64,000 nt of DNA from a virus. Under the pieces are notes generated by a model, which worked only from the letters and a program-made list of their open reading frames with translations, was not told where the DNA came from and did no database searches. The position numbers were made by a program, and so were the translations under genes. Location of the stretch: positions 1 to 64,000 of the IMG/VR virus record IMGVR_UViG_3300048597_000118. One strand, written 5' to 3'. Below, in pieces: positions 1 through 43,832 of this stretch; the first letter of the stretch is position 1; the number at the start of each line of letters is the position of its first letter.

Positions 1-3000
1 CTAATGGTCTAGAGGTAACAGCAACCTCAGCCCCCTTAATGTCTTTCGGCAATGTAGGGGACTTAAGATAGTTATCTTCTCTTTTGTTCTTAGCAGTGTC
101 ATTTGATATTGTTCTAGGTGAAAGCAACTCAGAGCTATCTAATGCTGATAAGGTAGAACCGCGCCTAAAGCCCGCAACATTATTCTTTGGCGTAGAAGAC
201 TCTGGAGTAACTATTTGTGTAGTGGTTGTTTTACTGGAAGTTGCTGTGTTAGTGGTCGCAAATGCTACTTTTTGTCCGCCTGAGTGTCTAGATAAAGCTT
301 CAACTCGACGTTGTTCTTTCTCTACCTTTTTCTTCTTATATTTCCCGCTAAAGTCAAATACTTCTACGGCATCACTGGCGCCATGCTTGTTCTGTTTAAC
401 CCAGTCTCTACCTACCTTTTCACCGTATATAGAGCCGGCTATAGAGCCGACTACAGACCCTACTTGAGAACCTATCTTAAAGCCGACGGCAGCACCAGCT
501 GCTATGCCAATACCACCAAAGAAAAACCCGATGGCAGCACCTGCGGCAGCACCTAATAAACCTCCTGCCACCCAGCCAACACCTTGTCCTACAACATTGC
601 CAGCTAAACCACCTAATGCTCCGCCTACATCTTCTTTAGCTTTCTGGTATTCTTCTGCAGTAGTAGCAGTGTTAAGCCTATAAGCACCGTATCCTAGGGA
701 GATAGCGTCAGCAGCATAGTTAAGATAAGGTAGTGCTTTAGTAGCTTTAAGCCCTCCCTTTAGAGTTAAGTAAGTTGTAGCGTAGCCAGCACCAGACTGA
801 GACAGATACTCAAAACCATAGGATTTCTGAAAGTCAGTAGTATCCTTCTTAGCTAAAGTAGTTACCCCTCTATAAAGGTTGAAAGTTGCCATACCGGCGC
901 TAAGACTACTACTGGCATACGTAGACCTCGTTTGCCAGTCAGCTTCTTTAACTTTATCTATAGTATTACCTACTAAGCCACGGCCGGAGCGCCCCATTAT
1001 AGTAACCGGGTCGGAGTATTGAGGGGCGCCGCCAATACTACCCCGATTTTTGTTGCTTGTTATATCATCAACATCAATAGAAGGAGCTACACTTTTAGGT
1101 AAGTCTTTTTGCAAAGTAATATCTGATGACTTAGTCAAAGTCACTTGCTTCTGTACATCAGATGGCAAGTCGGCAACGGTGTATAACGGTTCGCCCCACT
1201 TTTGGTAATCACTTAGATGTTTTTTATATTGTTGCAGCACTTCGTCTGATTGAGAGCCGCTCATATCCATAAGCCCCTGTAAATCAGAACCTACGGTTCT
1301 AGGTCCAAGACTTCCATCTTGGTTAGGTACAGAAGTAAAGTCACCACGTTTAACAGATTCTACAGTGACCTCATCGCTGAACATAGAGAACGCTTCACTT
1401 TGTTCTGCAAATCTGGAGTAACCAAAGTCTAATACCATGGTCTCACCGCCTGGTCTGACCATTACGTTCCTGCCGTGTACGTCCCCGTGTACTATACCCT
1501 GTGAGTGTAACGACGCCAGCTTTTTAGCCATAGATAGTCTGGCGGCGCGCCTAACTTCTACACCACTAATATCATCACTAATATCATCAAAAGTAACACC
1601 GTAGTGCTTGCCCATATCAAAGCTGCGCTCATCAATACCATAAACAGGAGGAGCTAAGTTCGTCTCGGCTGCTAACTTTTGTATATTGGCTTCTACTTGT
1701 ATTGTGTTGGCTATCTGTTTATTTACTCCAGACTCTAACAAGGTTTTTCTTATTAGAGTCCGGCCACCGACTTCAACTTCTGTCAAAGTGCCATTTCTAC
1801 CAGACATGGGTCCTGACACCTGGTTAGTAGGTATACTAGGTGCCTCACTACGAACAGTACCGCTTGAAGCTTGTGACTCTATAACTGAGGGAGGTGCTTG
1901 TGGATTAGTAACCGTAGCAGTGCCACCGCTGCCGCCGCCTCCAATAGGGCGACCGCCACCGCCGCCGGGTTTGGGACTACCACCACTCTTATTATCTCTA
2001 TCTATACTGGGCTGCTTTGGAGAAATAACGCCTTCTTCTCCAATTGACACGTCAGACGATACGCCAGGGCTAAGATTTTCTAATATGCCTTTAGCTCCTG
2101 AAAAATGGTCACGCAGACGCTTAAACATCTTATTAGCACCTACGTTTAATGCAACATGGGCCGCCGCCCATATATACCCAGAAGGCCCAACACCATAAAT
2201 CAAGTCGTCGACCATACCCTCGCGACCATATTCATCCCCTTCGCCCTTCAAAATATTCCGGGACCTATGCCGGGCAATATTAGTCTTGGCTATACTCTGA
2301 GTCCGCACACCAGTAGCCAAACTGGTGGCAGCACCTTGCACCATACCAACTGGTCCACCAGTAAATAAACCAAACGCGGTATTAATAGCCACGCTGGCTA
2401 TCAGCGCCCCCAAACCGACTGCCTTGTCAGGAGCACTAATACTAGTCAAATACTTCTTGGAAGCCCTGTTAGCTCGAGCCAAATTCCTACTGCTGAGGTC
2501 TAAGTCTTCTCTATTCTCTTTAATCCAGTTACGTTCAGACCTTACTTCCCACGTGTCAAATCCTTTAGATACAGTACTCTGAACGAGGTTATAGCCAACA
2601 GCACTCATAGCCAGCTTAAAGATACTGGAAGACCCAGGCAAGTAAGAAGCATACAAACCTTCACTTGCTTTACTATAAGCACGACGAGACATAGCCGTTG
2701 ATTGTAAATATTGGGCTACACTCATGCGCCCGGCCCCGTATCTATTAGACTGCTTCTCTATTTCTTTCTGTGCTCCTTGAGCTGAGAAATGATATTGCAC
2801 TAAGGGTAATAAATGCGTCCCTGCCTCGGCACCTACAGACAAAACAGATAATACTTTTTGGCCTGCGGTCATGGCGGCGGCATTACCCACCGCCCTACCT
2901 GGTATAGCAAAACTAGGCTTGACATGTTGTCGGAATGTTATTCCCTTACCTGCTTGATACTTGAAGTTAGTTAAAGCATATGTAGTAGCACCAGCAACAC

Positions 3001-6000
3001 CTTGTATACCACTGGCATAAGTTACATACTCTCCATATTTATTATTTAGCTCCCGGTCCTGAGCGGCGTGTGTCATTTCTTCCGTGATAAACCGGGAGTT
3101 CAGACTGCCCAAACTGATGCCAGCCCCAGCAGAATTCTTTCTTAGTTGATTACGAGCATTAAATGCAGCCGGGTTTTGCAATTGCCATTGCATTCTATTC
3201 TGCATAGTATCCTTCCAACTATCAGGAACATACGACCCGCTCTCTATCCACTTCTCCCTCTCTAACCACTGCTTGGCGGATATCCCGTCCTTATACTTTT
3301 CTATACCCTGACCTAGCGAATACTGGTAACCAAAGAAGCTAGTAGCCGCCGCAGCAGTAGCCCCAGATAAAAGCACATAGGCTCCTTTACTGAAGGCCTG
3401 ACCTACGCTGGTGGGAATCTTACCTTTAGTGACCGCCAAGGTACTCAAAGTGATAGCTGCCCCAGCTCCGATAAGCCCCCAACCTAAAGTATCTTCTGCA
3501 GCTTCTCTTTGGATTAAATTCTTAACATAGACGTCCTTGATTCCTGCCTCACGCACAGCTAAGGTGTGCCTTTTAGCAAAGTACCGGTCAGTGTGGTCCA
3601 TAGCAAAAGCGGATGCTGTAAGAGTACCTACTGCTAAGGTTCTTAAAGCAAGACTCTTGTTGCCAGCGCTAGGTGTTTTAGACATCAGCGCCAACACAGC
3701 ACCACTGAATAACGCCTGCTTACCTAAATCACTACTCTTTTGACCTGCTAAATAGTTAGGGTTAGTGCCACTATATTGTTGTCTATCCTGACGCCAGGTT
3801 TCTTGCCAGTTATAGGTCGTGATAGCTGACTGGGCTACAGGTAGGATATGCGGCGCTACTTTGTTAGATACGCTTGCCCATTTACTGGAACCAAACCAAC
3901 CAACTTTATAGTAAGACGCCGTAGCAATCCCACTAATTGCTAGAGCTCCTAGTCCGGCAACGGAGTCTTTATTAAGATAACTGTCCCGACCTTGACGTTG
4001 CTCTGTCAATAAACGCCCAGAGTATAGGTCTTTAGCAGCCCATTCTTCGGCATTGCGACCGACTATTTCATTAACCTGACTAGTGATTAAAAGGGTGCCG
4101 ACCAAGCCAACTTTATTTTCTCCTTGGCTGAATGCACTCAACACACTACTAGTAGCCGTCATAGCCGCCGCTTGGTAATAAGCACGATAAGACTCCTTAT
4201 AGTTGCCCATATGGTCTTTTGGGTCTACCTTTGCAAATCTATGATGGGCAGCGGTAATAGTAGCCACGTCCAGCACAAACGGAGCCAGTTTTGTAGCATG
4301 GCTGCCTATAGTTCCCCATTTACTAGACCCACCTTCTTTTAATGCCTGGTTAGCCAGTTCTCTTTCGTCAAAGGCTAATAGCTCAGCTCTGGTAGGACTA
4401 TTATTGTTTTGGCTATCTACCAGCTTATTAAGAGAGTCTACAGACCACCGGGCAAGATCGCCCCATTTACCTTTAGATTTATAAATGTTCGTCCAACTGA
4501 TACGTAAGAAGTCAGTTAACGAAAACCCTTTAAACCAATAAGGAGCTCCTAGGGTAACTGGAGTAAGTATATTTTTAATCGCAGTGCGAGCATTAAACTG
4601 TATGGCTTTCCAGCCTACTTCCTTAGTTTGGTCTTTTACAGACTTTTTCAGTATGTTCTTAGTGACTGCATTACTTAGCTGAGTCACTAAGTCTTTACCA
4701 CGAATCATGTTGTAGGCATAACCGCCGGCCATGGCAGCAGCAACGCTACTACTTGCAAACTCATAGGCTTGGGCTTTAGTCCTGCCTTCTGAATCATCTT
4801 CTAGATTTAGTCCGGCATAACCAATGTTAAAGATACCTTTGGGTATGAAGCCAGCTACATCACTGTTTAATAACACCTTACTTAACTTAAATACAGCCAA
4901 AGTAGTCACGCCAAAAGTTGCTAGTTTGGTGGTAAACCCGGTAGCTTTACCAGCCCAAGAACCGGCAACGTCAGGTTTCATACCTGCTCCGATGCGAGCT
5001 AATAACGATACACCAGCAGTAACACCTATAGCTGCAAGCCGACGGCGGTCTAAGAATTTACGGTCATCTTCGTCCTCCTGATCGCCTATCCACCCAATCA
5101 TGTCATCAAGTGCAGGACTTAATAATGCTGTAGCTCCAGCAATAGCTACGCCACTATAAGCAGTGTTAGCAGCTATCCTCGACCAAGACCTGGTTTTGGC
5201 CCATTGCGTTGCTAGAGCTAACCCCGCCTTTACTCTTTTATGGGCCCATATGCCAGCTCCTACAACGGAATTACTTATGAAGCCAAAGTTTATCTTGCGT
5301 ACTTGTCTTATAGACTTACTGATTAGATGGTCTTGATTCCCTATGTAGTTATAAGCAGCGCCGGCATAGGGTCTAGCTAAAGCACCAGTAACACCAGCCC
5401 CCACTTGTAACCCCAACACATGCCAACGTTTGTCTTTATCTTCAGACCAACCTAATTTATTGGCTAGAATAGACGCCCCTATAACAGCAGTGGCAGACCA
5501 TACAAACATTTGATTATTAGGGGCGGCACCGGCCCCACCTATTGGCTTAAACACCACTCCCTTAACTTTGTCTAATATTTCGCCAGCCTTGATAAACGAG
5601 TCGATAGTTATAGCAGCGCTCTTACCTGCTACATCCATAGGTGCTTGAATAAGACTACCAGTGCTAAACAAGCTGTATCGCATTACGTTAGTAGCTTGGG
5701 ATAACCAGGGTGCTGCCGATGGTCTAGTCTTAGGCACTAAAGGTCCTAACAGTGCATTACCGTAACTATCTATTTCCTGTTGACGACGTTTGACTGCTAA
5801 ATGAGTGAGAGGAGATACATAGCTGTATCCCATGTGCTCACTGGATACTCGACCAGCCCCTTTAGTTAGCCGTTCCATGGTCAAGGAACCTATTATCGTA
5901 GTAGTCGGTTTACCTTGAAGGAAACTGGACATCAGTTCAGTAGTGATGCCGGCGTTAAGTTGTCCACCACGACGACGCCGGGACTCGATTCTATTCTTAC

Positions 6001-9000
6001 GGTCTTGTTCTATTTCTGCCCGGGTATATAGCCACATCCTGGGTCCATACGCTGTTTGCTCTGGTGCCCGTTCTGACCAACGGTCGTAGAATGACTCTTT
6101 AGTCTCAGGGACAAACAGGTCAGCTAAGAAACTAACCCCCGGCATTTGTGCCGCCCTACGACGCATATTAGTAAACATAGGGTCTAACCCAGCAGTTATT
6201 ACCCTTAATGGAGATAACAATGCCTGCACTGGGGCCAGACTACCTATGGCATCTAATGAGCTAGCTGTAGCTCTAATAGATGGTCTTACTATATTTTTGT
6301 CTAGCCATTTAAACTTAGGCTTGAAGAACCCAGTCAAATTCTTACGAAACCCTTTATTAGCATAAGCAACACTGCCTACAGCTACTGCCGCCACCATAAC
6401 TGATACAGCCAGTGTGGGGTTTTTAGTTAGAGTGCCTAGTATTACTTGGGCCGGTATTATCATCCCAAAGGTTTGGAATAGACTGGCAGCGGCGGCATAG
6501 GATGACCGGCGGCGTTCTAATTCATCCATTGGGTCTGATGCTGCCGCTGCATAACTTATAAATTCGTACCCTGCTTTAGCATCAAACAAAGCAAAGGATG
6601 CTCGGAATAACCCACCCGTCGCCTGTTTAAATAACCCAGAGTATCCTTCTGTGTCTATAAGATTTCGAATACTCTCAGAATTAGCACTAATATCTGGAAT
6701 TTCTACAGAACGGTTCACTACAAGCGATTTATTTACAGGGGCTTTGTCTAAGGCTTTAAAAGAGCCAGTCTGACGTAAGACCTCCATTTTGTTCTGTAGA
6801 TGTCTTTGGAGTAGAGTTTCAATCTCCTGACGACGTATGTCATCACCTTTAGCATTGCGTAAGACGTTAGTCAATCCTTCTACTAAGGCGTCGTCTGTGA
6901 CATCGTAAATGCCTTTAATCATTTGTTCAAAGGCATCGCCTTTGCCTTTCATGCCGTAGCCAATTTCTAGTTGAGCCACGCTCTCTTTAAACTTTGACCT
7001 AATTTCATTAAGGATTTCAGTTATTTGTGGTGCTTGGTCTGAGCTTAAAGCAGCTAATCTACCAGAAAATGTGTCTAAAGACTTGCTGAAATTCTGTAAT
7101 GAGCCGACGGCGTTATGCTTACCAAATACTGCATTCAGTGCTGATATAGCTTCGTCACTGACCGGTCCACTCATAGACAATTCAGACATCACTGAACCCA
7201 CTTGTTTAATCAAGCGGTCTCCATCAGCAGTGAATGACGTACTTCGTAAAGCATGGGTCACATTCTCTCTGGCCTGCCCCAAACTCCGAGAAGAATCTAC
7301 TAATGTCCCATATACCTGTAATGCTCCTAATGCGCCTAGACCTTGAACAATAGAAGTTATACCGGTACCGGCTAACATACCAGTTAACCCTACTGCGCTA
7401 AACGCTAGGGCAGCTGCCGGTACAATGTTGTGATAATTGGCTCCATACTCATCTAAGGTACGGTCATAGAAGGTGCCAAAGGCGTAGTCCATAATACCGC
7501 CGAAGTACCCAGTAACAGGATTGGGTCCTTTATCTTGTACCCGTTCAGAGTCATACAACAAAGAATTTAGGTCTTGTTGGGTAGACCGACCTTTAGCCAT
7601 GGCGTACATTGCACGGGCAAATTCAGCATTAGTCTGCACACTAAATCTAATAGGATTACCCGAGATATTTGTTGACTCAATTCGGAAGTTATTACCTACA
7701 TAGTCATAAATTGTGGCGATGCTTGGCGATATAAAGTTTGTAGTTGCTTCTGTTTTAATACGACCTGCGCCGGCCATTACGGTCATTAGGTCTAACATAT
7801 GACCTTCACCACTCTGCCATGCTAGTCTTCTAATTTCATCGCTACGACGACCAATGGCCATCTGTAAGGTTGGGCTGGATATAGCAGCAGACTCACCGGC
7901 ACTTATGTTGTTCTTATACGTGGCGCGGGACTTTCTCATTAAAGTAGCTCTATATAAAGCCACTACCCTGGAAGCCGGCATGTTCGGGTCTTTCTGAGCT
8001 GCTGCTAATAAAGGTCCTATAGATTTAGCATTATTAAACTCAGATGCCATGGCAGGCATTAAGTAAAATGACCCACTAACGTCTGCCGCCACAGACTGAG
8101 ACTGCATATACGATTTAACCATGTCCTGTTGAGCAGATACCCCCAACGGACCACCTATACCTAAGAAGGGCGACGGCGCATCTTGATAGGTACCCATTGA
8201 CTTAGATGGGTTACCCATAAAGAATACAGACCGTAAAATATAATCTCCTACATTAGCTATGGCTTCGTTTACATTTTTAGGTTGGTATCTGGCACCACGG
8301 ATACCCAAGTTAGTGAGCATGGCTTTCTGCTCTCTAGTCATTTGAGCGCCACGGCCAGTGTCAGTCACCGCCCTTAATAGGTAACTGAGAGGATTAGAGT
8401 GGTCGTAAAAGTCCGTTAAGGATAAAAACTGGGCAGCAATAAAAGAGCCTAATAGAATAGGAGCTAATACCCTAGAAGCCATTCCTAACCTGGCGGCACC
8501 AGATTGTAATAAAGGTAGTTCAGTCCTACGGAACTGTCTGAGTAAGGGCTCTACAACTTCATCTGATTGACCTTCTTTAATGGCTAGCATTAACGCTTTT
8601 TTACTGTCGGCAGCGGCTTCTATAGTGATTCCGTTGTTACTGAGGTGTTGTTGATATGCCTTATATATCTCTTGCTTTTTACGTCCTATATACCCAGTGC
8701 CAGTTTCATTAGCCCAATCAGTCACAGATTCAAAGGCGCCGGATGCCATTAATGCGCCGCCGAAGCCTGCTGCTCCTATAGCAGTACCCAAAGCGTAATT
8801 AGCTAAATGATTTTGCTCTAATTTGATAGTGTTAGTAGTGTCTCCTTTAATAAGACTGCCTACCAAAGCATCCATGTGGTCACTTTGATGCTCAGTGGTT
8901 GTCTGTCCAGGACGTAACATGCCAGCTACTAACATAGCGCTTAGGTAGAAAGGCATTAACTTTCTAGCCATGGGGCCGGCTTTAAATAAAGCCTGCTCTC

Positions 9001-12000
9001 CTCTACCTAAGAAGGCAGTTATTGAGTGAGTAAGATAATTAACACCGACAAAACTTAGAGAGTAGGCCCCTCTGGTTAACTGGTCTGTTACAGTCAAGCC
9101 TGTGCTTGTCAGACTATAAAGCCCTTTATAGTTTTCTAACTCTCTGTATATAGGAGAATTCTTATCTAGACGACCGACAACTTTGCTTAATGATTGTTCA
9201 GCGCTTTGTAGAGCAGTCAATCCGCCTATGAACAACACAGGCCGGTAATCAAAGGTTGGGTTTAGCCCAGACCCTAAGGCTAAAGAAAGGATGCCAGAGG
9301 AAGCCTTAAGTGTGCTATAAGCTTCTTTACGCTGTTCTACGTCAGAGTTATCACCTATAAGACCTCTTTGATTCATACCAGGTTGGAGGTCAGTCAGTTG
9401 ATTGATTAAGAATCGTTCAGCTACAGACGGGGTATATTTAGTAGCTGGGTTAAACATAGAAGGCACCATAAAGCCGACCCCAGATAAGGGATAAAGCTGT
9501 AAACCAGACTGCATAGATATCTGGTTGGTGCTGGGGTCTAGTTTGCCAACCATAGCAAACTGATAAAATGGCGCAGCTATCTGTGTAGCAAACGGGTAAA
9601 ATAACCGCCCTGGTTGTTGGTCACTTACTGTATATGCAGAGGCTAATAACCCAGCGACCACCATGCTACTTCTAGATACATAGTCCATATCCTTAGTAGC
9701 TTTCTCTGCTGATTGTCTATGAGCTTTAGCAAAGATAGCGGCAGCAGAACCTTTAATAGGGTCTAGCTCTATGCCTTTACGGGGGTCATGCCACCGTTGC
9801 CTGAAGATAGTATCTCCTAGGGCTATCAAAGGCTCTAAAGTAGATGCGGCTACAGAAGTAATAGCTTGTGTAGCTAATAGGGCCAAAGAGGCTCCTACAA
9901 AAGCACCGGCATAGCCAAACCGTAACTTATTGGACCCCCAGAATGCGTTGGAGCCTGCTCCTTTAAGCAAACCAGTTAATTCTTCAGCGTTCTTAGTAGC
10001 AGATATACCTTCAACACCGTTTACAACACCAGATGCTACTTGAGTGATTAACTTGACTTGGTCTTCAGAGAATTGTGACCCGTATTTGGCAGAAGTCCAG
10101 TATCTTAGATGGCTAGACTGATGATAGACAGAAGGAAAGACTAAACCACCTAATACATAACCAGCAGTAGCCGCCGGGTATTTTAAGATTGCTGGAGCGC
10201 TATGACTGTAATTCTGGCTATAGCCAGCTAACACCTTAGCGTCTGCTTCCCTACCTTCTACTTCGGGAGACTTAGTGCCAAAGATATGGCTCATTATGCT
10301 GTCTCCTATGTCTAAACCTTGCGGTTTGACGAAGAAGTGGTCAATAATACGGTCTGCGATCAGGACCGCACCGGTGCTGAATAAGAATTTACGGAACCCA
10401 GCATAAGCATCATCTCCAGGAGGGCCAAGGTCACTATGCCCAGTGGCGTATTTTATACCTGGTGTGTCATTGATTTTTGTTTGAATATCAATATGTAGTT
10501 GTTTTAACTTAACTACGTCTTCTTCGCTAATGCCAGAGTCTGGGCTTGTTAACTTATTAATAAAGGCTTGTAATACATCATCGAACTTTACATTAGCTGC
10601 CCCTCCTTGAGCACTGCTCAACACGTTAAAGGTGTCCTTAAACGACTGGGCTACTTTCAGCTCAATAACAGACGCCTGGCTTTGTAATTTAAACGTCTCC
10701 AGGGTATCAGTTACATATTTACCTACACCTACTGAGGCAATATTCCCTATAGTCCGGGCCACTTCTCCTTGTAGGGAAAGTAGTCCAGTAAAACCAGGAC
10801 CGATTAACTGTTTAAAGTTTCGGCGGTTACCTATTATGTCATCTTGAGATTTACCTTGAACTACCTCATACCGGTTAAAAGCGTCTCTTATTGGTTTTAT
10901 CCACAATAAAGGATTAGCAGGTAGGTATTCAGCTAGGCTATCAAAGGTACGAGCTAAGTCTGTTAAACGGTCATAACCGTAGTGAAGTATTCTATTGACT
11001 TGGTCTTTTTGGGCGCTGGAATCAAAACGTAGCACAGGTTTAGCCCGGGCTAAGTCTATTAATTCTTCTCTTGCTTTTATATACCCAGCTTTTAATTTAT
11101 CTGTTGGTATGTCTACCGCGTTATCTAAAAACGGTAGGAACATGTTAGCCAAGTTAGCGCTGTCTAAGCGACGTACAGCCCCTAAATTCTTGAAGCCTAC
11201 AATATCAGGTATGTTGGGAGCTCCAGGATTAGGGTTGTCTAGAGAACGCGCTAGGTCTATGCTACCGCTAATTCTATGGGTGTCTTTATCTATAGCAAAG
11301 GTTATGCCTGTTTCTCTAAGTACTTCTCTAAAAGTAGCCTCAAACTTCTCTGGTGTTAGGTCGTCTGCTGACTTACTCTTAAGCTTCTTACGTACCAAGC
11401 TTATTAAATCATCTTTAAGATCTGTGTTGGTGTTAGACCTGTTATATATGTCTTCTAAGAACTTAAATAATTCTTCTTCTACCCCTGCTAATGCCTGTGC
11501 ATTTGCGCCTGTTCGGGCAGTATACCAATCAAAAAGACTGTTCTTGGCTCCTGTTACGTTCTTACCGGCTGCAAAATCCTGTACAGTCAGTAAATACTCT
11601 CCTAGAGCTAAACCTTCTTTTGCCGGCGTAAGGGCTGCACCAGTACTTCGCGCCAGACGGTCTAGTGTCCTTGCTTGCGAGAACATTCTTCTGTGACCAG
11701 TGTCTAACATCAAAACACCCGTGTAGTCACTTCCTTGTTCTGCTACTTTAGTTACTACGTCTACTACAAAACGAGACCCACTCTCTTCAATTTGAGACTT
11801 GGCTATAGAATAAGCGTGGGTCACACCAAAGTAACTAGCCATAGACAAAGACGTCTCAGCAATAGTCGTAGTTACGGTATTGAATAGATTTTCAAAGAAG
11901 CCCCGCTGCTGTTTGTCTCTAAAATACTCCTGCTCAATAATCTTCTGTTGGTACTCACCTATAGAGCCAGACAAATCTCCTTCGTGTTGTTTCTTAATGC

Positions 12001-13978
12001 GTTGCATCGTATAATGCCCGCTGACAGTGTCAAAAACACGACCAATACCAGACGCTAAGAACCCAGCTAAACCCTCTCCTGGAGTATAAAGGTCGTCTTG
12101 TCTAAACAGTTGGTTAAGGCTCATACCTAACCCGGGCGCACTTAATTTGGAATCAAGTCGCGAGAGTACATAACCCTGAATACCCTTAGCTTTAGTACCG
12201 TATAACGCCTGGTACCGGTCAGAGTAAATGCCTGTCGAGATGCCTTGGTGGTACTCATAAAAATCAGCGGGCATTTTATTAGGCATTACTGGCAACAGGC
12301 CTAACTCTTGGAAGTTGCCGCTTTGTATGTCTCTATAGGTAGGCTTATAAAAAGAAGATAGGTCGGCGCCACTTGGTCCTTGGTAAACGGCATCTTTGCG
12401 TAGTCTATATACGGCTCCTACATTTAGTACACGACCAATAGAACCCATAATGGCGTTAGTGTAAGCATCCGGTGCCGTGTCTAAGTCAACCATCATCCCT
12501 AACTCGTAAGCAAGGGACCCAATTACGCGGGCAGTGCCTATATTAAGAAAGCCGACTATACTGCCGTCGAAGTCTTGAGGGATTAGATTATCTTCTTTAA
12601 ACCTTTTAGCTAACTCAGACTCTTTGTTTAGATTAGGTATAACTAACCCAGACACGTTATGGTGCGCTGCTTGTTTACCAACCCATGTATGGGTCTGGAC
12701 TATATACGCATCTTCTAATAGACGCCGCTTTTCTCTAGGGTCTATATCCATACGGTCAATATCTGTATGGAGCACTGTCTTAACCCCTAGCTTTTTCAGG
12801 GTATTAATCTGGTCTAATGTTTGCTTGACTTGTTCTCGTCGTATGCCAGCCACTGTATTGTCAGCTAAGCTGGTCTCTGAATAACCCATAGCAGGGCCAC
12901 CCATGAAATACATGGCTCCTGAATTCTGCATCTCTTGCTGAATGGTGTCTAAATCTGCATGGAGTTCGTCTCGTATTTTGGCTAAGTCTTCATTGGTAAT
13001 AGAGTTAGAGTCACCTAGTCTTTCAGCAGTGGCAGACCTAGGCGCAGCCGCCCGAATAAACCTGTCAGTTTCGCTAATTGCTTCTTCGTGAACAGAAACG
13101 TTCCGTAATAACTTGACTCCTTCTAAATCCTTTTGGCCTGGCGCTGTATAATCTTCACTTTTAAAAACACCTCTGGTGGCGTATTTATCTTCAGCCCAGT
13201 CGTCCAGCATTCGATTATACCGAGGGTCTTCTATATGAAAAGAAGTGTCAGTATACCCTTGTCGGTATACCCCTCCCCAAAGGTTAGTAGTGCCGTCGTC
13301 ATGACGTTTAAAGGATACAGACCCACCTACTATGCCCGGCGCCATCCAGAATTGGAAGTTACCGTACATAGCTGTAGTTTGTACAGCCACTTTAGTAGGC
13401 TGCTCTACTAAGTTATTATCGCTGTCCCGTATATCAGCGTATTGAGCTGCACTTTCAGCACTAATTTCCCCAATGCTAAGTTTGAAGTGCATTAACTTCT
13501 GTTGTATTTCTTCAGGTAAGTTAGGGTCTATACCTGCGCTTGATACTTGTGGAGCTGGCATCCCTGACCTAGGGTCGTGTCGCTGAGTAAAATAACTATT
13601 TAACTTTTGAATATTCAGGGTTTCTGCTGGTGCGTCAAAAAGATTCTTACCTTGCTTAAAGGAGAACTCACTTTGAGTAGCTCTTTTAATGCCAGCATCA
13701 CCTAGAACCTGAGCCTCATTTTTACCGAAGAGTTTATTGAACCACCCTTGAGGCGGAGCTGTAATCAAAAAGTTATCTGTTTCTACAGTGCCTCGCCTAA
13801 ACCTAGATAATGACCTTTCTAGGTTAAATACAGTGTGAGTCTCACTGTAGACTACATAGGGATTATCTCCAGACTCAGGACTAGTCTGACCAGTCCTAGC
13901 TGAACTAAACCGGTCAGGCACATTAAAGCGGAGCTGGTGGTCATTGCTGACACTGCTAAACCCAAAAGTCCCGGCCAT
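1..13978 (-). CDS. Giant (>4,659 aa, 3' end outside window) virion/tape-measure-like multidomain protein with kinase-like domain
   Basis: ATG at 13978 follows an in-frame TAA and reads MAGTFGFSSV. The frame stays open to the window edge (...VAVTSRPL). The ORF track has no minus-strand ORF below 13852, as expected if there is no stop. Contains many Ala/Gly-rich hydrophobic helices, a HGDVHGRN...DFG motif and a glycine zipper. Confidence 0.9.
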   Translation of the reverse strand, partial: MAGTFGFSSVSNDHQLRFNVPDRFSSARTGQTSPESGDNPYVVYSETHTVFNLERSLSRFRRGTVETDNFLITAPPQGWFNKLFGKNEAQVLGDAGIKRATQSEFSFKQGKNLFDAPAETLNIQKLNSYFTQRHDPRSGMPAPQVSSAGIDPNLPEEIQQKLMHFKLSIGEISAESAAQYADIRDSDNNLVEQPTKVAVQTTAMYGNFQFWMAPGIVGGSVSFKRHDDGTTNLWGGVYRQGYTDTSFHIEDPRYNRMLDDWAEDKYATRGVFKSEDYTAPGQKDLEGVKLLRNVSVHEEAISETDRFIRAAAPRSATAERLGDSNSITNEDLAKIRDELHADLDTIQQEMQNSGAMYFMGGPAMGYSETSLADNTVAGIRREQVKQTLDQINTLKKLGVKTVLHTDIDRMDIDPREKRRLLEDAYIVQTHTWVGKQAAHHNVSGLVIPNLNKESELAKRFKEDNLIPQDFDGSIVGFLNIGTARVIGSLAYELGMMVDLDTAPDAYTNAIMGSIGRVLNVGAVYRLRKDAVYQGPSGADLSSFYKPTYRDIQSGNFQELGLLPVMPNKMPADFYEYHQGISTGIYSDRYQALYGTKAKGIQGYVLSRLDSKLSAPGLGMSLNQLFRQDDLYTPGEGLAGFLASGIGRVFDTVSGHYTMQRIKKQHEGDLSGSIGEYQQKIIEQEYFRDKQQRGFFENLFNTVTTTIAETSLSMASYFGVTHAYSIAKSQIEESGSRFVVDVVTKVAEQGSDYTGVLMLDTGHRRMFSQARTLDRLARSTGAALTPAKEGLALGEYLLTVQDFAAGKNVTGAKNSLFDWYTARTGANAQALAGVEEELFKFLEDIYNRSNTNTDLKDDLISLVRKKLKSKSADDLTPEKFEATFREVLRETGITFAIDKDTHRISGSIDLARSLDNPNPGAPNIPDIVGFKNLGAVRRLDSANLANMFLPFLDNAVDIPTDKLKAGYIKAREELIDLARAKPVLRFDSSAQKDQVNRILHYGYDRLTDLARTFDSLAEYLPANPLLWIKPIRDAFNRYEVVQGKSQDDIIGNRRNFKQLIGPGFTGLLSLQGEVARTIGNIASVGVGKYVTDTLETFKLQSQASVIELKVAQSFKDTFNVLSSAQGGAANVKFDDVLQAFINKLTSPDSGISEEDVVKLKQLHIDIQTKINDTPGIKYATGHSDLGPPGDDAYAGFRKFLFSTGAVLIADRIIDHFFVKPQGLDIGDSIMSHIFGTKSPEVEGREADAKVLAGYSQNYSHSAPAILKYPAATAGYVLGGLVFPSVYHQSSHLRYWTSAKYGSQFSEDQVKLITQVASGVVNGVEGISATKNAEELTGLLKGAGSNAFWGSNKLRFGYAGAFVGASLALLATQAITSVAASTLEPLIALGDTIFRQRWHDPRKGIELDPIKGSAAAIFAKAHRQSAEKATKDMDYVSRSSMVVAGLLASAYTVSDQQPGRLFYPFATQIAAPFYQFAMVGKLDPSTNQISMQSGLQLYPLSGVGFMVPSMFNPATKYTPSVAERFLINQLTDLQPGMNQRGLIGDNSDVEQRKEAYSTLKASSGILSLALGSGLNPTFDYRPVLFIGGLTALQSAEQSLSKVVGRLDKNSPIYRELENYKGLYSLTSTGLTVTDQLTRGAYSLSFVGVNYLTHSITAFLGRGEQALFKAGPMARKLMPFYLSAMLVAGMLRPGQTTTEHQSDHMDALVGSLIKGDTTNTIKLEQNHLANYALGTAIGAAGFGGALMASGAFESVTDWANETGTGYIGRKKQEIYKAYQQHLSNNGITIEAAADSKKALMLAIKEGQSDEVVEPLLRQFRRTELPLLQSGAARLGMASRVLAPILLGSFIAAQFLSLTDFYDHSNPLSYLLRAVTDTGRGAQMTREQKAMLTNLGIRGARYQPKNVNEAIANVGDYILRSVFFMGNPSKSMGTYQDAPSPFLGIGGPLGVSAQQDMVKSYMQSQSVAADVSGSFYLMPAMASEFNNAKSIGPLLAAAQKDPNMPASRVVALYRATLMRKSRATYKNNISAGESAAISSPTLQMAIGRRSDEIRRLAWQSGEGHMLDLMTVMAGAGRIKTEATTNFISPSIATIYDYVGNNFRIESTNISGNPIRFSVQTNAEFARAMYAMAKGRSTQQDLNSLLYDSERVQDKGPNPVTGYFGGIMDYAFGTFYDRTLDEYGANYHNIVPAAALAFSAVGLTGMLAGTGITSIVQGLGALGALQVYGTLVDSSRSLGQARENVTHALRSTSFTADGDRLIKQVGSVMSELSMSGPVSDEAISALNAVFGKHNAVGSLQNFSKSLDTFSGRLAALSSDQAPQITEILNEIRSKFKESVAQLEIGYGMKGKGDAFEQMIKGIYDVTDDALVEGLTNVLRNAKGDDIRRQEIETLLQRHLQNKMEVLRQTGSFKALDKAPVNKSLVVNRSVEIPDISANSESIRNLIDTEGYSGLFKQATGGLFRASFALFDAKAGYEFISYAAAASDPMDELERRRSSYAAAASLFQTFGMIIPAQVILGTLTKNPTLAVSVMVAAVAVGSVAYANKGFRKNLTGFFKPKFKWLDKNIVRPSIRATASSLDAIGSLAPVQALLSPLRVITAGLDPMFTNMRRRAAQMPGVSFLADLFVPETKESFYDRWSERAPEQTAYGPRMWLYTRAEIEQDRKNRIESRRRRGGQLNAGITTELMSSFLQGKPTTTIIGSLTMERLTKGAGRVSSEHMGYSYVSPLTHLAVKRRQQEIDSYGNALLGPLVPKTRPSAAPWLSQATNVMRYSLFSTGSLIQAPMDVAGKSAAITIDSFIKAGEILDKVKGVVFKPIGGAGAAPNNQMFVWSATAVIGASILANKLGWSEDKDKRWHVLGLQVGAGVTGALARPYAGAAYNYIGNQDHLISKSIRQVRKINFGFISNSVVGAGIWAHKRVKAGLALATQWAKTRSWSRIAANTAYSGVAIAGATALLSPALDDMIGWIGDQEDEDDRKFLDRRRLAAIGVTAGVSLLARIGAGMKPDVAGSWAGKATGFTTKLATFGVTTLAVFKLSKVLLNSDVAGFIPKGIFNIGYAGLNLEDDSEGRTKAQAYEFASSSVAAAMAGGYAYNMIRGKDLVTQLSNAVTKNILKKSVKDQTKEVGWKAIQFNARTAIKNILTPVTLGAPYWFKGFSLTDFLRISWTNIYKSKGKWGDLARWSVDSLNKLVDSQNNNSPTRAELLAFDERELANQALKEGGSSKWGTIGSHATKLAPFVLDVATITAAHHRFAKVDPKDHMGNYKESYRAYYQAAAMTATSSVLSAFSQGENKVGLVGTLLITSQVNEIVGRNAEEWAAKDLYSGRLLTEQRQGRDSYLNKDSVAGLGALAISGIATASYYKVGWFGSSKWASVSNKVAPHILPVAQSAITTYNWQETWRQDRQQYSGTNPNYLAGQKSSDLGKQALFSGAVLALMSKTPSAGNKSLALRTLAVGTLTASAFAMDHTDRYFAKRHTLAVREAGIKDVYVKNLIQREAAEDTLGWGLIGAGAAITLSTLAVTKGKIPTSVGQAFSKGAYVLLSGATAAAATSFFGYQYSLGQGIEKYKDGISAKQWLEREKWIESGSYVPDSWKDTMQNRMQWQLQNPAAFNARNQLRKNSAGAGISLGSLNSRFITEEMTHAAQDRELNNKYGEYVTYASGIQGVAGATTYALTNFKYQAGKGITFRQHVKPSFAIPGRAVGNAAAMTAGQKVLSVLSVGAEAGTHLLPLVQYHFSAQGAQKEIEKQSNRYGAGRMSVAQYLQSTAMSRRAYSKASEGLYASYLPGSSSIFKLAMSAVGYNLVQSTVSKGFDTWEVRSERNWIKENREDLDLSSRNLARANRASKKYLTSISAPDKAVGLGALIASVAINTAFGLFTGGPVGMVQGAATSLATGVRTQSIAKTNIARHRSRNILKGEGDEYGREGMVDDLIYGVGPSGYIWAAAHVALNVGANKMFKRLRDHFSGAKGILENLSPGVSSDVSIGEEGVISPKQPSIDRDNKSGGSPKPGGGGGRPIGGGGSGGTATVTNPQAPPSVIESQASSGTVRSEAPSIPTNQVSGPMSGRNGTLTEVEVGGRTLIRKTLLESGVNKQIANTIQVEANIQKLAAETNLAPPVYGIDERSFDMGKHYGVTFDDISDDISGVEVRRAARLSMAKKLASLHSQGIVHGDVHGRNVMVRPGGETMVLDFGYSRFAEQSEAFSMFSDEVTVESVKRGDFTSVPNQDGSLGPRTVGSDLQGLMDMSGSQSDEVLQQYKKHLSDYQKWGEPLYTVADLPSDVQKQVTLTKSSDITLQKDLPKSVAPSIDVDDITSNKNRGSIGGAPQYSDPVTIMGRSGRGLVGNTIDKVKEADWQTRSTYASSSLSAGMATFNLYRGVTTLAKKDTTDFQKSYGFEYLSQSGAGYATTYLTLKGGLKATKALPYLNYAADAISLGYGAYRLNTATTAEEYQKAKEDVGGALGGLAGNVVGQGVGWVAGGLLGAAAGAAIGFFFGGIGIAAGAAVGFKIGSQVGSVVGSIAGSIYGEKVGRDWVKQNKHGASDAVEVFDFSGKYKKKKVEKEQRRVEALSRHSGGQKVAFATTNTATSSKTTTTQIVTPESSTPKNNVAGFRRGSTLSALDSSELLSPRTISNDTAKNKREDNYLKSPTLPKDIKGAEVAVTSRPL

Positions 13979-14017: not shown

Positions 14018-14638
14018 CTAAGCGCGACGCCTAGATAAGTCCTTGATCGAATCAAACCTTAATTCGTCATCATCTACTATATCTGCTAAAGTCAATGCTG
14101 GTTGAAATACAACCCTGACATATTCTCCGGGCACTGGGGTTTGTCCAGGCCAACTCAACACATTATAGTTAGCACTCCATAAGTGGTCTTGATTACCTTT
14201 TACTGACCTAACTAACCAAACGTTAGTGGGTAATTCATAAGGATTAGCCCCAGTATAAACAAAGTCATGGCTCGATTCCATACCATCAAACTCAGGAACC
14301 AGCCACCGCTGGGTCAATAACGGCGCTCGGGCACCCTTACGATGATAATCAACAATGTAATGACCATTAGGTAAGTCAGCACAACTGGAGGCCAACTGTA
14401 ACCTAATAAAACCGTCGGGCGGCACTTCCAAAACAAATGGCTCTGGGATTATGTTTTGTACGCCTCTATGGACCACCGCAGGTGGGTGGACTTTGAGGTA
14501 GTACTGACTCGGAGATTGGACTTGGGAACCGTCTGGGGCTAACGCCGGTGGCCTGAAGTGAATGACTATAGGTGTATATTTTAGTTGACCGGCATTGAGC
14601 GACCGGGCATATATATCCATTTGGTTAAAGTTAGGCAT
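14018..14638 (-). CDS. Hypothetical protein (206 aa), possibly virion-associated
   Basis: Co-oriented ORF filling the gap between terL and the giant gene; AT-rich start context. Confidence 0.7.
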   Translation of the reverse strand: MPNFNQMDIYARSLNAGQLKYTPIVIHFRPPALAPDGSQVQSPSQYYLKVHPPAVVHRGVQNIIPEPFVLEVPPDGFIRLQLASSCADLPNGHYIVDYHRKGARAPLLTQRWLVPEFDGMESSHDFVYTGANPYELPTNVWLVRSVKGNQDHLWSANYNVLSWPGQTPVPGEYVRVVFQPALTLADIVDDDELRFDSIKDLSRRRA

Positions 14639-14665: not shown

Positions 14666-17600
14666 TTAGAAACCAAAGCCGCCGTCATCAAAGTCATCGG
14701 TGAAGCTTTGCCCCTTAGTTCTAGCTTGTCTTACTAATGAACGTCGCTGGGAATCAGAGCCCCAGTCGCGCACTTTATTCCTCATAACCGACGGTCTACC
14801 TACCATCTTAGGCAGTGCTTTAGTAGTCATAGGAACCCCAGCTATTTCCCAGGCTACTGAACATACTGAGTCAATTAGGTCTTTAGAGTTATGTACTATA
14901 ACCCCAGCAGCCAACGCAAAGTTATCCCACTCATCTACTTCTAAGTCATATACGTCTACAGGTTCTAGAAGAGTGACTTTTATAATTTCGCGAACCTTAT
15001 GGTTTTCGCCCAGCCCACCCTTGACAAAATCATTCCAAGTCTCATAACCATTTCTCTTAAGAATGATTCTTAGAGTGGATACAGAACACTGCAGCTCTGC
15101 GGCAACATCCTTCATCATAGAGAGCCCAGACTGTACTGCGCCGTGTATATCTTGGATACTTACCTTAGGCGACCTGGTTCTATCAGAATCAACCATAATA
15201 ACTTTTCCTTTAAAGGAAAAAGTGCCTGCTTTAGTGTCTTTTCTGTCTATGTATTTATTTTCAAACTCCTGCCAATCAGAAAAGCCCTCGTCTCTTAAGA
15301 CTCGAGTGATAGTATTTCTGGACTCATCTAAAAAGATAGCAGCTTGGTATGCATTAGACGCACCATGCTCTAACGAACGTAGTAGAGAGTCTAAAGTAAC
15401 ATTTGCTCTGAAGAAACTAGCTTTCCTGTTCCTCTCCACATAGAACTCTTTAGGCTGGCTCTTCATATACGCTGACCTTTTTGCTCTCGTCTCAGGACGC
15501 TTATTAAATTCGATAGTCCCTTCAGAGAGCTTTTTACGGAACTCTAAGTCATTATTATGTGCGAGAGTGGAGTGATATGAGCAGTGTTCACTATGGTCTA
15601 ACACCTCTAGGTTTTCGGGTCTGTTGTCTGTTTTAATATGGTTAATATGATGGACAATTTTACCTCCTTTTAAATCTGGGTAGTTTAAGGACATATGGTG
15701 AGTTAAGTATCTGCCTTGTATAGAAGATACCTTTTCATATCCTCCCTGAACTGGCCATTGAAAGTTTATAGGCATCAACCGTGTAAACCCAGGCACTATA
15801 TCCTCAGCTTTTATATAATCTCCATTTCGTAACATAAATGGGTGCTCAGGGGTACATCTGATTACAGCTCCACTATCTAGAACTACATCAAGTAACTCAG
15901 TCACTTGTTTAGTCTTTCTGCCTCGCGCTTTGCCAGGCACAATTGTACCATCAGGTTTGGCCGAATACACCCATACCTCTTTGCCCTCTAGCTCAGAAAT
16001 CATAGGTCTAGTTCCGTCCAATAAAGGTATTCGAGTTTCCCCTACAAAACAACCATCTGGTGGGTGCATAATCTTACCGCGTTCTGTGTCATGGATGATG
16101 CCCATCATTTCTGACTTCAATAACGCTGTCCAATAGGAGTCTTTAGGTAATATCAGCCGACCTTCGTGGACTAATTTCCTTGTAAAGTCATATATTTCTA
16201 CTTGGACTCTATTACTCCAGAAACGGCTACTAGCGTTAATGCCAAGCAACCTTAACCGTTGAATAGTTTCATGTTGTTGAGCGTGGTCAGTAGTCAACTT
16301 ATATATAGGTCTAGAGGCGTGAATGGTGGTGATGATGTCATAGACATTAAGGATACTAACTACAGAACCTCCTTCTGGTTCCCAAGCGGCTAATCCATCA
16401 ATAACTACTACGTCTTGGTCATCGCGTCGCTCACCGTGACCAAATGCCATAGCATAGGCATCTTTGACGAATGCCGGGTCTAAGTGCATGTAAGTGTGAT
16501 GGCTATAATTCTTTTCTAGACTGTGTAGTTGTAACCTGACCATTTTGTCAGGCATTAACTGCATAGGCTCTAACTTGATTACTGACCGTCCTGTAGTTGC
16601 TTCTAACACCTCAGTTTCACTGAAGTAGGTAAAGGCTGAAGTGGTGCGGTCCCCTTCAAATTCAAGACGGGCTGAGGCAGGGTTGAGGGTGTACTCAGAG
16701 GCGACGATAGGATTGTTGCGGTTCATTAAAGGATTCAAATCCCAAGTGCGGAATCTGAAGCCAATCCAAGAGTCTTCTGCCATAGCAGCAGTGTATAACC
16801 TCTGTATGGCATCTCCATCACGCCAGGCACTACTAATAGCCACGCGGCGGGCATGTTCTCCAAAAGTAATACCAGATACACCGATGTTAGACCAGAGTTC
16901 TAGTGCGTTAGATTTACCGTCTTTATTTTCAAAACGGGCGACTTCATCCATGACTAAAAGTATTACCCTAGACCCTACTTGACTAGAGCCTTTAGAGTTA
17001 CCTGCGTATATGTAGAGTAGTTTGTCGTGATATTTAATCTCTTCTTCACCGATAATTATGCTTTTGTTATCTATAAGACGTTTTACTTTAGGGATATAGT
17101 TAAGGAATGCCCGCGCTTGACCAAAGATAGTCTTTTTTACCTGACTGGCTGCTGGAGCCAAGCAATATATACTAATAAGAGTTGAGCTGGCTACACCGAA
17201 GAATTGTTGGGGATTCGGCAGCATACATAGCTTATACCACTCATAACCTATAATGATTGCCCCTAGGAAGGTATTGTGATTGGTCATACCCTGAGCTACG
17301 TACTGCTGATGTCCTGGAACCCAAAGGTCCACACAGAATGCGGTCGACTCCTCTACAGAAACTACAGGAGTATAAAAATAATCACAGTCTAGTAAGTGTT
17401 GAAAGTGCTTTACAGCTTCTTGGTCAGAACTATACTGCTCTACCAGAGGCAAAAATCTCTCAACTCGCTTAGAGCTTAGCTTTTCCCCAGTAGATTTTTT
17501 GATGGCATTGCCAACTATAGCCCTATATTCAGAGCGGACATTAGGTGGGTCTCCTGGTTTTTTATCAAAATACTGCCCAGTATTGTCTGGTAGAGAACCC

Positions 17601-31563: not shown

Positions 31564-32685
31564 TTAGTTAAAAAAGTTAAGTCTGTATTGACTAGAGTCT
31601 AAATCTAAGTCTGGTTTGTCGAGTCCGGCTAATCTCAACCACAAAATAAGATTTTCATTACGCTTAAATAGCTTACTGTCCTTAACAACGTCAAAGTAGT
31701 TCTGTATATAACGCGCGTCAGCAATTAAAGCCCATAACCCGGCTATATGTGACTTGACTGCTGCCGGTAAGGTATCTAACTTGTCTTGCTGTAGGTTTTC
31801 TGTTAAGGTCTCTCCTATCTCTAATAATGTCTCTACTATTACTGCTTGTAGTATTTGTCTTAGCCCGCCAGGTTTAGTTAAACTTAACAGACTATTACTG
31901 ACTCTATGGAACTCACGACGTATCTTATCGGGAGCTTCAGACATGATTAAATCCCAGCTATAAGAGTCATATTCGCCCAGTAAAAATCTTTGCTTAATTA
32001 ACTCTGGCTTAGTCAGTACCCCAGCTTGTCGTAAATTTGATTGTATTTCAGGGTATTCCCAATACGCAGTTAATGCCTCTTCAAAGACATCTAAAGTTTG
32101 GCTGGTGAGCCTTATCTTCCATTCAAATAGGTCTGTGAGTCTTTGATTAGCGTTAATCTCACTGGGATAACGATGTCCTACGGTAGCCCATATAATCTTC
32201 AAACACCCTTTAATTAATGACAGCCAATCATAGTCATTACTACTGTTAGACCCTAGATGATAGCAATAAAACGCAATGGACCCTAAAGGTCCCCAGCCGT
32301 TGGCTAAATTAGGTTCTTGTTGTGGTTCGTAACCTGGCCATAATTCTCTGTAGTCATACCTTGTCCATACTTTAGTGGCATGTCCAGTAAGCGTCTCATT
32401 AATATAATATTGAGTGTTATGTAAAGATTCAGATAAGACTAGTGAGAAGATGTAATCCCTATATTGTATAAGAGCTGGTCGTCCCATACCCTGTCTATAA
32501 GATTCAGCGTATTGCGTAGATAGTTTACTTAATACCCCAATGCCCCTTAATACATCTAAGGTGCGGTCTCTATCTAACTTGTAAGCGTTGTTAGAGTCAT
32601 AGCCTACTCGTTGTGCTTTAGGGTCTATAGCCAACCCGGCTAGCTTAGATAACTCAGGCTCCTTAACTTTTGTGATTTCAAGCAT
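31564..32685 (-). CDS. Hypothetical protein (373 aa)
   Basis: Packed ORF in the baseplate region; no motif recognised. Confidence 0.75.
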   Translation of the reverse strand: MLEITKVKEPELSKLAGLAIDPKAQRVGYDSNNAYKLDRDRTLDVLRGIGVLSKLSTQYAESYRQGMGRPALIQYRDYIFSLVLSESLHNTQYYINETLTGHATKVWTRYDYRELWPGYEPQQEPNLANGWGPLGSIAFYCYHLGSNSSNDYDWLSLIKGCLKIIWATVGHRYPSEINANQRLTDLFEWKIRLTSQTLDVFEEALTAYWEYPEIQSNLRQAGVLTKPELIKQRFLLGEYDSYSWDLIMSEAPDKIRREFHRVSNSLLSLTKPGGLRQILQAVIVETLLEIGETLTENLQQDKLDTLPAAVKSHIAGLWALIADARYIQNYFDVVKDSKLFKRNENLILWLRLAGLDKPDLDLDSSQYRLNFFN

Positions 32686-32689
32686 TGAA

Positions 32690-33325
32690 CTACTTTCCTT
32701 CGGTAGACGTAAATAACCTTAGCATAGTAGCTCCTAGTGTCTTAGGTATCTTGTCCTGACCCATAGACAACAATATAGACTCTATAAAAGCTCTACACCC
32801 ATAATGATGAAAAGGGTACAACCCCTTTAGTTGATATTGATACCCAAGTGTGTCTGACATCCAGTCTATATACATTCTAGGATTGTCTATGACTGACAAA
32901 GGGTCAACAAAATGGGTGTACCCAAACCAAGTTGATATAAGGTCTAAGTCTTGTTGTTTTGTTAAATGTGCCCGCTTAAGGTTTTCTATTTTTGGCAATC
33001 CTTGTTGGTATGCGGTAGTCAGTAAACTTGGCTCAAGTAAAGCCTCTAAGTCAGCTAGCTCTTTTTGCGGTTCTCTACCAAGTAATACCATCAGAGCTGA
33101 GCAACAATAACGTTGACCAAAGTTACCAGTCAACTTAACTAGATTAATTAGGTCGTATAGTGAATGAGTAGCGTGATAGTCAATTAATACGAGCGCTGTT
33201 TGAAAACCTCCTGGTATGCCTGCTGTGTGCATGGCCATACAGAACCTTAATTCGTCGTTAGATTGTCTCGTAACTGTATTTATAGGCTGCCCAGTGGGTA
33301 AAAACATAATATTATTCGAATTCAA
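32690..33325 (-). CDS. Hypothetical protein (211 aa)
   Basis: Packed ORF overlapping the upstream stop. Confidence 0.75.
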   Translation of the reverse strand: MNSNNIMFLPTGQPINTVTRQSNDELRFCMAMHTAGIPGGFQTALVLIDYHATHSLYDLINLVKLTGNFGQRYCCSALMVLLGREPQKELADLEALLEPSLLTTAYQQGLPKIENLKRAHLTKQQDLDLISTWFGYTHFVDPLSVIDNPRMYIDWMSDTLGYQYQLKGLYPFHHYGCRAFIESILLSMGQDKIPKTLGATMLRLFTSTEGK

Positions 33326-36746: not shown

Positions 36747-36775
36747 GTTTAAAAAATACCTCATACATTTTGTAA

Positions 36776-38227: not shown

Positions 38228-38245
38228 AGGTTATGTTTATACGGC

Positions 38246-38273
38246 AAAACGCTGAGCTATTACTAGTCAGCGT
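38246..38273 (-). terminator. Putative intrinsic terminator after the tail tube gene
   Basis: Hairpin ACGCTGACTA-GTAA-TAGCTCAGCGT followed by a short T run. Confidence 0.55.
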
Positions 38274-38298
38274 CTTACATTACATATTAGCTTATAAG

Positions 38299-39054: not shown

Positions 39055-39068
39055 ATAATTTTAATCCG

Positions 39069-43827: not shown

Positions 43828-43832
43828 AATTA

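Follow-up and report, generated by a model that had tools for sequence, protein, structure and literature searches.

We analysed a window of 64,000 nucleotides (bases 1-64000) from a 101,169-bp viral contig, IMG/VR record IMGVR_UViG_3300048597_000118, at whose edge the gene for a giant protein (hereafter, the giant) is cut off. On the minus strand, the frame that opens with the ATG at position 13978 runs to base 2 through 4,659 codons, and retranslation gave 0 stops, which bears out the unannotated stop-free frame of at least 4,659 codons proposed by an earlier sequence-only reading of this DNA. Because the window starts at contig base 1, the open reading frame (ORF) is open-ended, which accounts for its being overlooked by an ORF track. 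A few bases 5' of the ATG there is a purine-rich stretch, GGGGA, and the start is 39 nt from the stop of an ORF of 206 amino acids (aa). The conservation map and alignments partition the giant into the following features:

2..13978, minus strand: the giant ORF, 4,659 codons, complete at its 5' end and cut at its 3' end by the contig end
12479..13978, minus strand: N-terminal head, aa 1-500, shared with closer relatives only (conservation map)
5729..12481, minus strand: conserved body, aa ~500-2750, family-defining and mainly alpha-helical, with conserved hydrophobic helices, in discrete blocks
2039..5728, minus strand: lineage-variable region, aa 2751-3980, rich in Ala, Gly and Trp, with more hydrophobic segments and the KxxP motifs
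1829..2038, minus strand: Gly/Pro/Ser-rich linker, aa 3981-4050 (from the translation)
1199..1828, minus strand: kinase-like module, aa 4051-4260 (Pfam Pkinase, profile against the PDB, motif conservation)
449..661, minus strand: Gly-zipper/hydrophobic segment, aa ~4440-4510, conserved in the family
2..448, minus strand: Lys/Ser/Thr-rich stretch up to the truncation point (from the translation)

A full-length homolog of 6,114 aa, 65% identical over approximately 4,000 aa, is encoded by a 205.5-kb phage contig from IMG/VR (G001). Between the two proteins, nonsynonymous differences (pN) were 0.16-0.44 and synonymous differences (pS) 0.70-0.81 across all segments; with pN well below pS in each of them, the whole length of the giant is constrained coding sequence. 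The lineage-variable region is still under purifying selection (pN 0.27-0.31, pS 0.75-0.78), and the highest pN of the protein, 0.435, falls in the linker. Residue 4659, the last in the window, aligns with residue 4995 of the homolog, which continues for approximately 1,120 residues beyond that point, a VanY D-Ala-D-Ala carboxypeptidase included. We estimate from this alignment that the giant would be approximately 5,800 aa long, with the first 80% or so in the window and some 1,100 residues beyond the contig end. Ala and Gly together make up 20.1% of the giant, and 12 moderately hydrophobic 19-mers (Kyte-Doolittle 1.4-2.0) are spread over aa 1359-4492, in agreement with the Ala/Gly-rich hydrophobic helices noticed from the letters. 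The recurring KxxP[FHY] units of that same description proved not to be repeats, as self-BLAST, at a threshold of E<=1, matched no part of the giant to another; K..P[FHYW] is present in 4 copies where 0.93 would be expected, a weak excess for a motif picked post hoc.

An exhaustive HMMER search with aa 1-1200 of the giant as query defined a family of 24 cluster representatives, nearly all of them 3,500-7,900 aa long. The family profile also matched gp120 of Ma-LMM01 (2,898 aa, 'hypothetical') collinearly, with domain E values of 3e-12, 3e-9, 9e-4 and 5e-5, and this match is carried by the family's own body motifs, not by a common accessory domain. The homology is visible with the family profile only, BLAST identity being not significant. 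Likewise, tblastn with both halves of the giant found nothing at E<=1e-5 in 50,697 phages from GenBank, no prophage or host relative was found among the representative genomes of 185,579 prokaryote species, and an ESM Atlas search with aa 1-2000 found nothing (best score 0.77). Like the giant, gp120 and its counterpart in MaMV-DH01, ORF143 (PHROG 29513, 'unknown function'), have the body motifs, the synteny and no cysteine, and both are true but distant members of the family; gp120 differs in being half the giant's size and in lacking a kinase, a hydrolase and any other Pfam domain. A literature search found no paper that mentions Ma-LMM01 gp120, and no proteomic or structural paper on it.

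The body that defines the family contains the motifs PGLG..N, FEN..TA..YFGV, PANP..W, FATQI..P.FQF and YQD.P.PF..GP.G.S...Y.Q.QS...D.S. An AlphaFold2 (AF2) model of aa 500-1699, built from 25 sequences, is of moderate confidence (pLDDT 65.8, pTM 0.55) and consists of 64% helix, arranged in 46 helices of at most 51 residues each, with a few small sheets. Foldseek searches with this model gave no meaningful match in the PDB (TM 0.04-0.06) or in BFVD (TM<0.1), and a VIA-wide search with it recovered a helical hairpin alone (model residues 1075-1157, Z<=8.4). In the head, an HxK motif (MHFK) at aa 164-166 (window 13483-13491, minus strand) is invariant in seven closer family members, and MAFFT aligns it with the PLD HxK of those distant members that match PF13091. 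An N-terminal PLD domain in the giant itself is unsupported, with an hhalign probability of 0.2% and no Pfam match; the motif may be what is left of a very degenerate PLD, or a coincidence.

Towards the C terminus, the giant carries its kinase-like module, which in the family comparison is present only in the giant and the G001 homolog. The beta3 lysine (IRKTL), the alphaC glutamate (IQVEA), the catalytic loop (HGDVHGRN) and the DFG Mg-binding motif (LDFGYS) follow each other in order and are invariant between the two proteins, which are 41-46% identical over this module. The match to Pfam Pkinase (E 1.9e-5, 24.6 bits) is below the gathering score of 31.7. A profile made from the two sequences retrieved 262 kinases from the PDB at E<=0.01, the best being 8k20_B, a small Bud32-type kinase (E 8.2e-6). 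On these matches the module appears to resemble small kinases of the Bud32/RIO type, with a predicted C-lobe reduced as in Bud32, and thereby the C-lobe-reduced kinases described for polyvalent proteins (PMC5512222). That the hydrophobic helices would be interleaved with enzyme-like modules was an overstatement, as this kinase-like core, at aa ~4055-4200, is the single such module in the part of the giant that the window holds.

Downstream of the kinase-like module, a match to PHROG 1047 ('tail associated lysin', E 8.5e-9) spans the Gly-zipper region, and the homologous region of one distant member of 6,999 aa (L015) matches Pfam Gly-zipper families. The VanY domain of the G001 homolog lies at aa ~5477-5603 (E 2e-33), a position that corresponds to the part beyond the end of the window's contig. 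Among ten distant members, an N-terminal PLD was found in five, M23 in four, VanY in two, and a SleB-type hydrolase and an SNase in one each. L015 combines PLD, Gly-zipper, M23, an RlpA-type DPBB and a SprT-like zincin (E 2.3e-6); another member has M23 (L013), and a third has M23, a beta-lactamase-fold/S11-type peptidase and a sub-threshold DPBB match (L014). The SprT-like/MPTase zincin was seen in L015 only, Pfam finding none in the window's 4,659 aa or in the G001 homolog. Most members thus end in peptidoglycan hydrolases, and the domain content shows a recurrent theme in which predicted wall-cutting modules are C-terminal, behind a putatively membrane-active Gly-zipper. As the cassettes differ by lineage and gp120 has none, the enzymes are add-ons to a conserved core.

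The giant contains no cysteine in 4,659 residues. With the average of 0.62% of 25 neighbouring structural-module ORFs, approximately 29 would be expected (P(0) ~3e-13), and the whole family has approximately 9 cysteines in some 125,000 residues. In G001 the cysteine content falls in steps, from 1.5-2.5% in non-structural proteins through 0.25-0.9% in ordinary virion proteins to approximately 0 in the giants. Ejected proteins of T7 behave in the same way (gp15 0/747, gp16 0/1318, against 1.4-2.3% in T7 enzymes), as do tape measures (lambda gpH 0/853, P23-45 gp96 0/5002, T4 gp29 0/590, P2 gpT 1/815). By analogy with these controls, the signature is suggestive of proteins that leave through the tail channel, and by this measure tape measures and other ejected proteins cannot be told apart. 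Within this group of phages, cysteine content could be a cheap means of predicting virion or ejected proteins.

By its genes the phage is a myovirus, with sheath, tube, gp25-like and gp6-like wedge, VgrG-like spike, major capsid protein, protease and portal; its candidate hub or spike proteins are encoded at window 36776-38227, 35163-36764 and 29309-31555. Its kinship with Ma-LMM01-type Microcystis phages is distant (sheath 25% identity). Upstream of the giant lie two genes:

14018..14638, minus strand: small partner, 206 aa, always immediately upstream of the giant
14666..19066, minus strand: large terminase gene terL, 1,466 aa, with an HNH/intein-type insertion, the conserved upstream neighbour of the partner-giant pair

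The giant is therefore downstream of terL, as the sequence-only reading had it, with the partner in between. In a synteny sample of 11 (G001, eight further IMG/VR loci, Ma-LMM01 and MaMV-DH01), the order is fixed as gp25-like gene, gp6-like gene, p850, p277, terL, small ORF and giant, followed by convergent genes, so that the giant is the last gene of a tail/baseplate/terL operon in all relatives examined. No terminator-like site was found between terL and the giant on the minus strand. The IMG/VR loci have homologous small ORFs (E 1e-9 to 1e-33), and in three of these loci (L017, L019 and L020) the stop of the partner and the start of the giant overlap, a hint of translational coupling. The partner is predicted to be all-beta (AF2, pLDDT 75.5), and its structural neighbours are small beta-sandwich proteins from the lambda tail tip (Z 8.6), XM1 neck (8.2), A-1(L) neck (7.9), Bxb1 tail tip (7.7) and DEV collar (7.2); a Foldseek search of the PDB with the partner model gave generic sandwiches only.

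We consider it probable that the giant is a virion-borne late protein that is ejected through the tail, cuts peptidoglycan, inserts in membranes and delivers enzymes, that is, a single-chain, enzyme-carrying 'ejectosome'. According to this model, the giant would be made late and packaged in the virion, helped by or docked to the small partner, which would itself belong to the virion and dock or cap the giant, and on contraction it would be expelled via the tail channel. Its C-terminal end would exit first, so that the hydrolases could cut through the thick wall of the cyanobacterium; next, the Gly-zipper and hydrophobic helices would enter the membranes and prolong the tail tube as a conduit for DNA, and the upstream parts (the kinase here, PLD or SNase nucleases in other lineages) would arrive in the cytoplasm, with host molecules as their targets. 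The giant's virion location, exit order, channel role and enzyme activity are what we infer from the evidence above. Several points weigh against the model. Incorporation into virions is our deduction for all family members. The body has no recognisable fold, and the putative channel role is read from moderately hydrophobic segments alone. The likeness of the partner to phage neck, collar and tail-tip proteins is a lead from a predicted structure, with middling Z scores of at most 8.6. As gp120 has no hydrolase, wall cutting is not the family's core function. Finally, cysteine depletion is also seen in some ordinary virion proteins of Ma-LMM01, where, in the stretch from 55 to 140 kb, gp087, gp095 (a metallopeptidase), gp105, gp107, gp112 and gp114 are cysteine-free too, so that the signature, although suggestive, is unspecific.

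That virion placement is putative also speaks for a different explanation, in which the giant never enters the virion and is instead a late, membrane-anchored protein of the infected cell that serves wall remodelling or lysis from within, superinfection exclusion or the organisation of assembly. Hydrophobic segments together with peptidoglycan hydrolases, and a gene at the very end of a late operon, would fit such a role. We regard it as improbable, because endolysins and exclusion proteins are not 3,000-7,900 aa long, because the extreme avoidance of cysteine throughout the family is what ejected proteins show, unlike cytoplasmic proteins encoded by these genomes (1.5-2.5% cysteine), and because the partner resembles virion neck and tail-tip proteins. 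The N-terminal PLD and SNase nucleases and the SprT-type zincin of the family are, moreover, typical of injected polyvalent proteins (PMC5512222).

The giant, being helical and cysteine-free, might alternatively be a protein packaged inside the head, like an inner body or scaffold, which organises or pressurises the DNA and forms no trans-envelope conduit. Massive internal proteins are found in large-genome phages such as phiKZ and its relatives, and a second giant of the window phage adjoins the portal gene. Wall hydrolases at the C terminus and Gly-zipper membrane segments would, however, be of use only outside the capsid, and the giant is linked to the baseplate genes and terL, not to the block of portal, protease and major capsid protein; we therefore hold this alternative to be very improbable.

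Pfam and PHROG scans of all tail-module ORFs detected no canonical tape measure. The tube gene (38299-39054, minus strand) is followed after 71 nt by a gene for a 483-aa protein, the Atlas model of which resembles gpD/VgrG hubs (TM <=0.37, a lead only), and PDB sequence searches with this protein and a 533-aa protein gave no match. The canonical slot at 36776-39054 thus looks empty, and a G/GT-like chaperone pair is not evident. PF10145 is absent from the window phage and from G001, where the sole PF20155 signal in 205 kb lies inside the giant, and besides its two giants we saw no long cysteine-free helical ORF in G001, the other cysteine-free ORFs being one tail fibre and one of the PHROG 'unknown function' type. 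These observations would be explained if the giant were the true tape measure, moved out of the tail module and fused to cargo in the manner of P23-45 gp96, so that it sets tail length and is then ejected. Its lack of cysteine, its hydrophobic segments and the C-terminal muralytic domains of its family are tape-measure-like (PMC10770324; T5 Pb2, PMC5380687), its Ala+Gly content is close to that of lambda gpH (24%) and P23-45 gp96 (20.4%), and the weak BFVD neighbours of the body include many tape measures.

Other results argue against a ruler. The PF20155 signal (E 1e-3, 15.5 bits) is far below the cut-off of 41. In all 11 genomes or loci the giant is not in the slot between tube and hub, as it comes after the fibres, terL and the small ORF. 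Its upstream partner is all-beta, not a helical chaperone of the G/GT type, although no search for a programmed frameshift was made; on the AF2 fold, we rejected a role of the partner as chaperone. The modelled part of the body has short or medium helices and small sheets instead of a single long helix, and the body motifs are specific and rich in proline and aromatic residues, unlike a ruler. At approximately 0.15 nm of tail per residue, MaMV-DH01 ORF143 (2,899 aa) predicts approximately 435 nm against a reported tail of 260 nm (PMC9927357), which bears on the whole-length case only; the same arithmetic gives approximately 900 nm for the 6,114-aa G001 protein. By analogy with P23-45 gp96 (PMC10770324), a partial-length ruler with cargo is possible. 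Taking both sides together, we find it doubtful that the giant is a relocated, cargo-bearing tape measure, and equally doubtful that it sets tail length in addition to being ejected, a share that is contained within the probability we assign to the ejected-protein model. The sequence-only reading had offered 'tape measure or ejected channel/cargo'. That general class is supported by the late structural operon, the avoidance of cysteine, the Gly-zipper and hydrophobic segments and the C-terminal hydrolases, and the evidence leans against a simple whole-length ruler on account of slot, partner fold, body model and tail length.

The closest known parallels each share part of this profile. P23-45 gp96 of a Thermus phage is a tape measure of 5,002 aa with a virion RNA polymerase (RNAP) fused to it (PMC10770324). 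Like the giant family, it is huge and cysteine-free, contains approximately 20% Ala+Gly and places an enzyme module ahead of membrane segments and of a metallopeptidase domain; ejection and a DNA pore are proposed for both. It sits, however, in the tape-measure slot of a siphovirus, where approximately 5,000 aa fit an extremely long tail, whereas the giant follows terL in a contractile-tailed phage and has no sequence similarity to gp96, no RNAP motif and no match between length and tail. The T7 proteins gp14, gp15 and gp16, of which the last carries a peptidoglycan-cleaving domain (PMC5380687), are helical like the giant, and gp15 and gp16 are likewise cysteine-free; packaging and ejection across the envelope are established for T7 and proposed for the giant. 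Their combined approximately 2,260 aa are close to the size of the giant's conserved body. T7 is a podovirus that divides the task among three proteins and has the gp16 transglycosylase at the N terminus, whereas the hydrolases of the giant family are C-terminal, and homology to gp15 or gp16 was found neither by PHROG, Pfam or PDB sequence searches nor by Foldseek or VIA with aa 500-1699.

T5 Pb2, further tape measures that bear muralytic domains, and phiKZ gp181, a 246-kDa virion lysin, are virion lysins fused to long membrane-active structural proteins (PMC5380687); proteins of this type are 1,200-2,200 aa long, lie in tail modules, carry other enzymes and are without the giant's conserved body. 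The polyvalent proteins of Iyer et al. 2017 (PMC5512222) resemble the giant family in being late-gene-linked giants with disparate enzymes, and the family likewise joins several unrelated enzyme domains in one polypeptide among late genes (kinase-like and VanY in G001). Peptidoglycan hydrolases, DD-peptidase, truncated kinases, nucleases and, in L015, the SprT/MPTase-type zincin are common to both. In contrast to polyvalent proteins, the giant is mostly a conserved, non-enzymatic helical and hydrophobic body, and no MuF, portal or other signature domain was detected in it; PMC5512222 makes no mention of cyanophages, VanY or transmembrane regions. Giant proteins that are carried in the virion, ejected and equipped with a lysin are a kind already known, and what is new in this undescribed family is the body of approximately 2,250 aa, its position, the partner and the kinase cassette.

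Some neighbouring genes of the window deserve separate mention. The insertion in terL matches HNH PHROGs at aa ~1109-1268, and the protein has 592 aa in G001 and 594-1,238 aa in relatives; the terminase of this lineage seems to have been a repeated target of mobile elements. Between the portal gene and the divergent region of the second giant there is a gene for a free-standing HNH endonuclease (52993-53553, minus strand; PHROG 59, E 5e-39). A 614-aa protein (window 33312-35156, minus strand) has a gpV/gp5-like OB-fold N terminus, as judged by eye, and a C-terminal region with short motifs in three copies (SVLPDFLQVGV, SMLPDFLGVN, SQLPPGMGI), which may build a spike or needle from repeated elements.

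The second giant occupies window 55364-64000 on the plus strand and is 5,173 aa long; its G001 counterpart (35305-51330) has 5,341 aa, and it too is cysteine-free. The two giants are not paralogues, as the family hidden Markov model gives E 5 against the second giant and E 0.12 against Ma-LMM01 gp080. Ma-LMM01 holds the same pair, with 1 cysteine in 3,562 aa of gp080 and 0 in 2,898 aa of gp120. Since both giants are cysteine-free and conserved in G001 and Ma-LMM01, the two-protein system suggested from the sequence alone is plausible. Directly downstream of the second giant in G001 is a cysteine-free ORF of 689 aa (32565-34634, minus strand; the same as L023:13565-15634), with PHROG 37225 (unknown function) as its sole match, which could be another ejected protein or the second giant's partner.

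All members of the family are annotated as 'hypothetical', yet the giant gene takes 18.3 kb, or approximately 9% of the 205-kb G001 genome, and both giants together take approximately 17%. We think it rather unlikely that, in this lineage of contractile-tailed cyanophages, one polypeptide of 3,000-8,000 aa encoded outside the tail module unites ruler, wall-cutting tip, membrane conduit (a single-chain equivalent of T7 gp14-16) and carrier of swappable effectors (kinase, PLD and SNase). If it did, that 17% would be spent on two injected mega-proteins, the second of which has PLD and RNAP-like motifs. The absence of cysteine, the fixed partner gene, the fixed position and the big body without known fold make up a testable family signature, and because Ma-LMM01 is in culture and gp120 is a member, proteomics, cryo-electron microscopy or tomography and enzyme assays can settle the matter. 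The family offers a route to the questions of where Ma-LMM01-type phages keep their tape measure and how a contractile tail moves DNA across a thick cyanobacterial envelope, and its swappable cassettes (VanY, M23, RlpA-type, kinase, PLD and SNase) would be a natural catalogue of entry-associated effectors.

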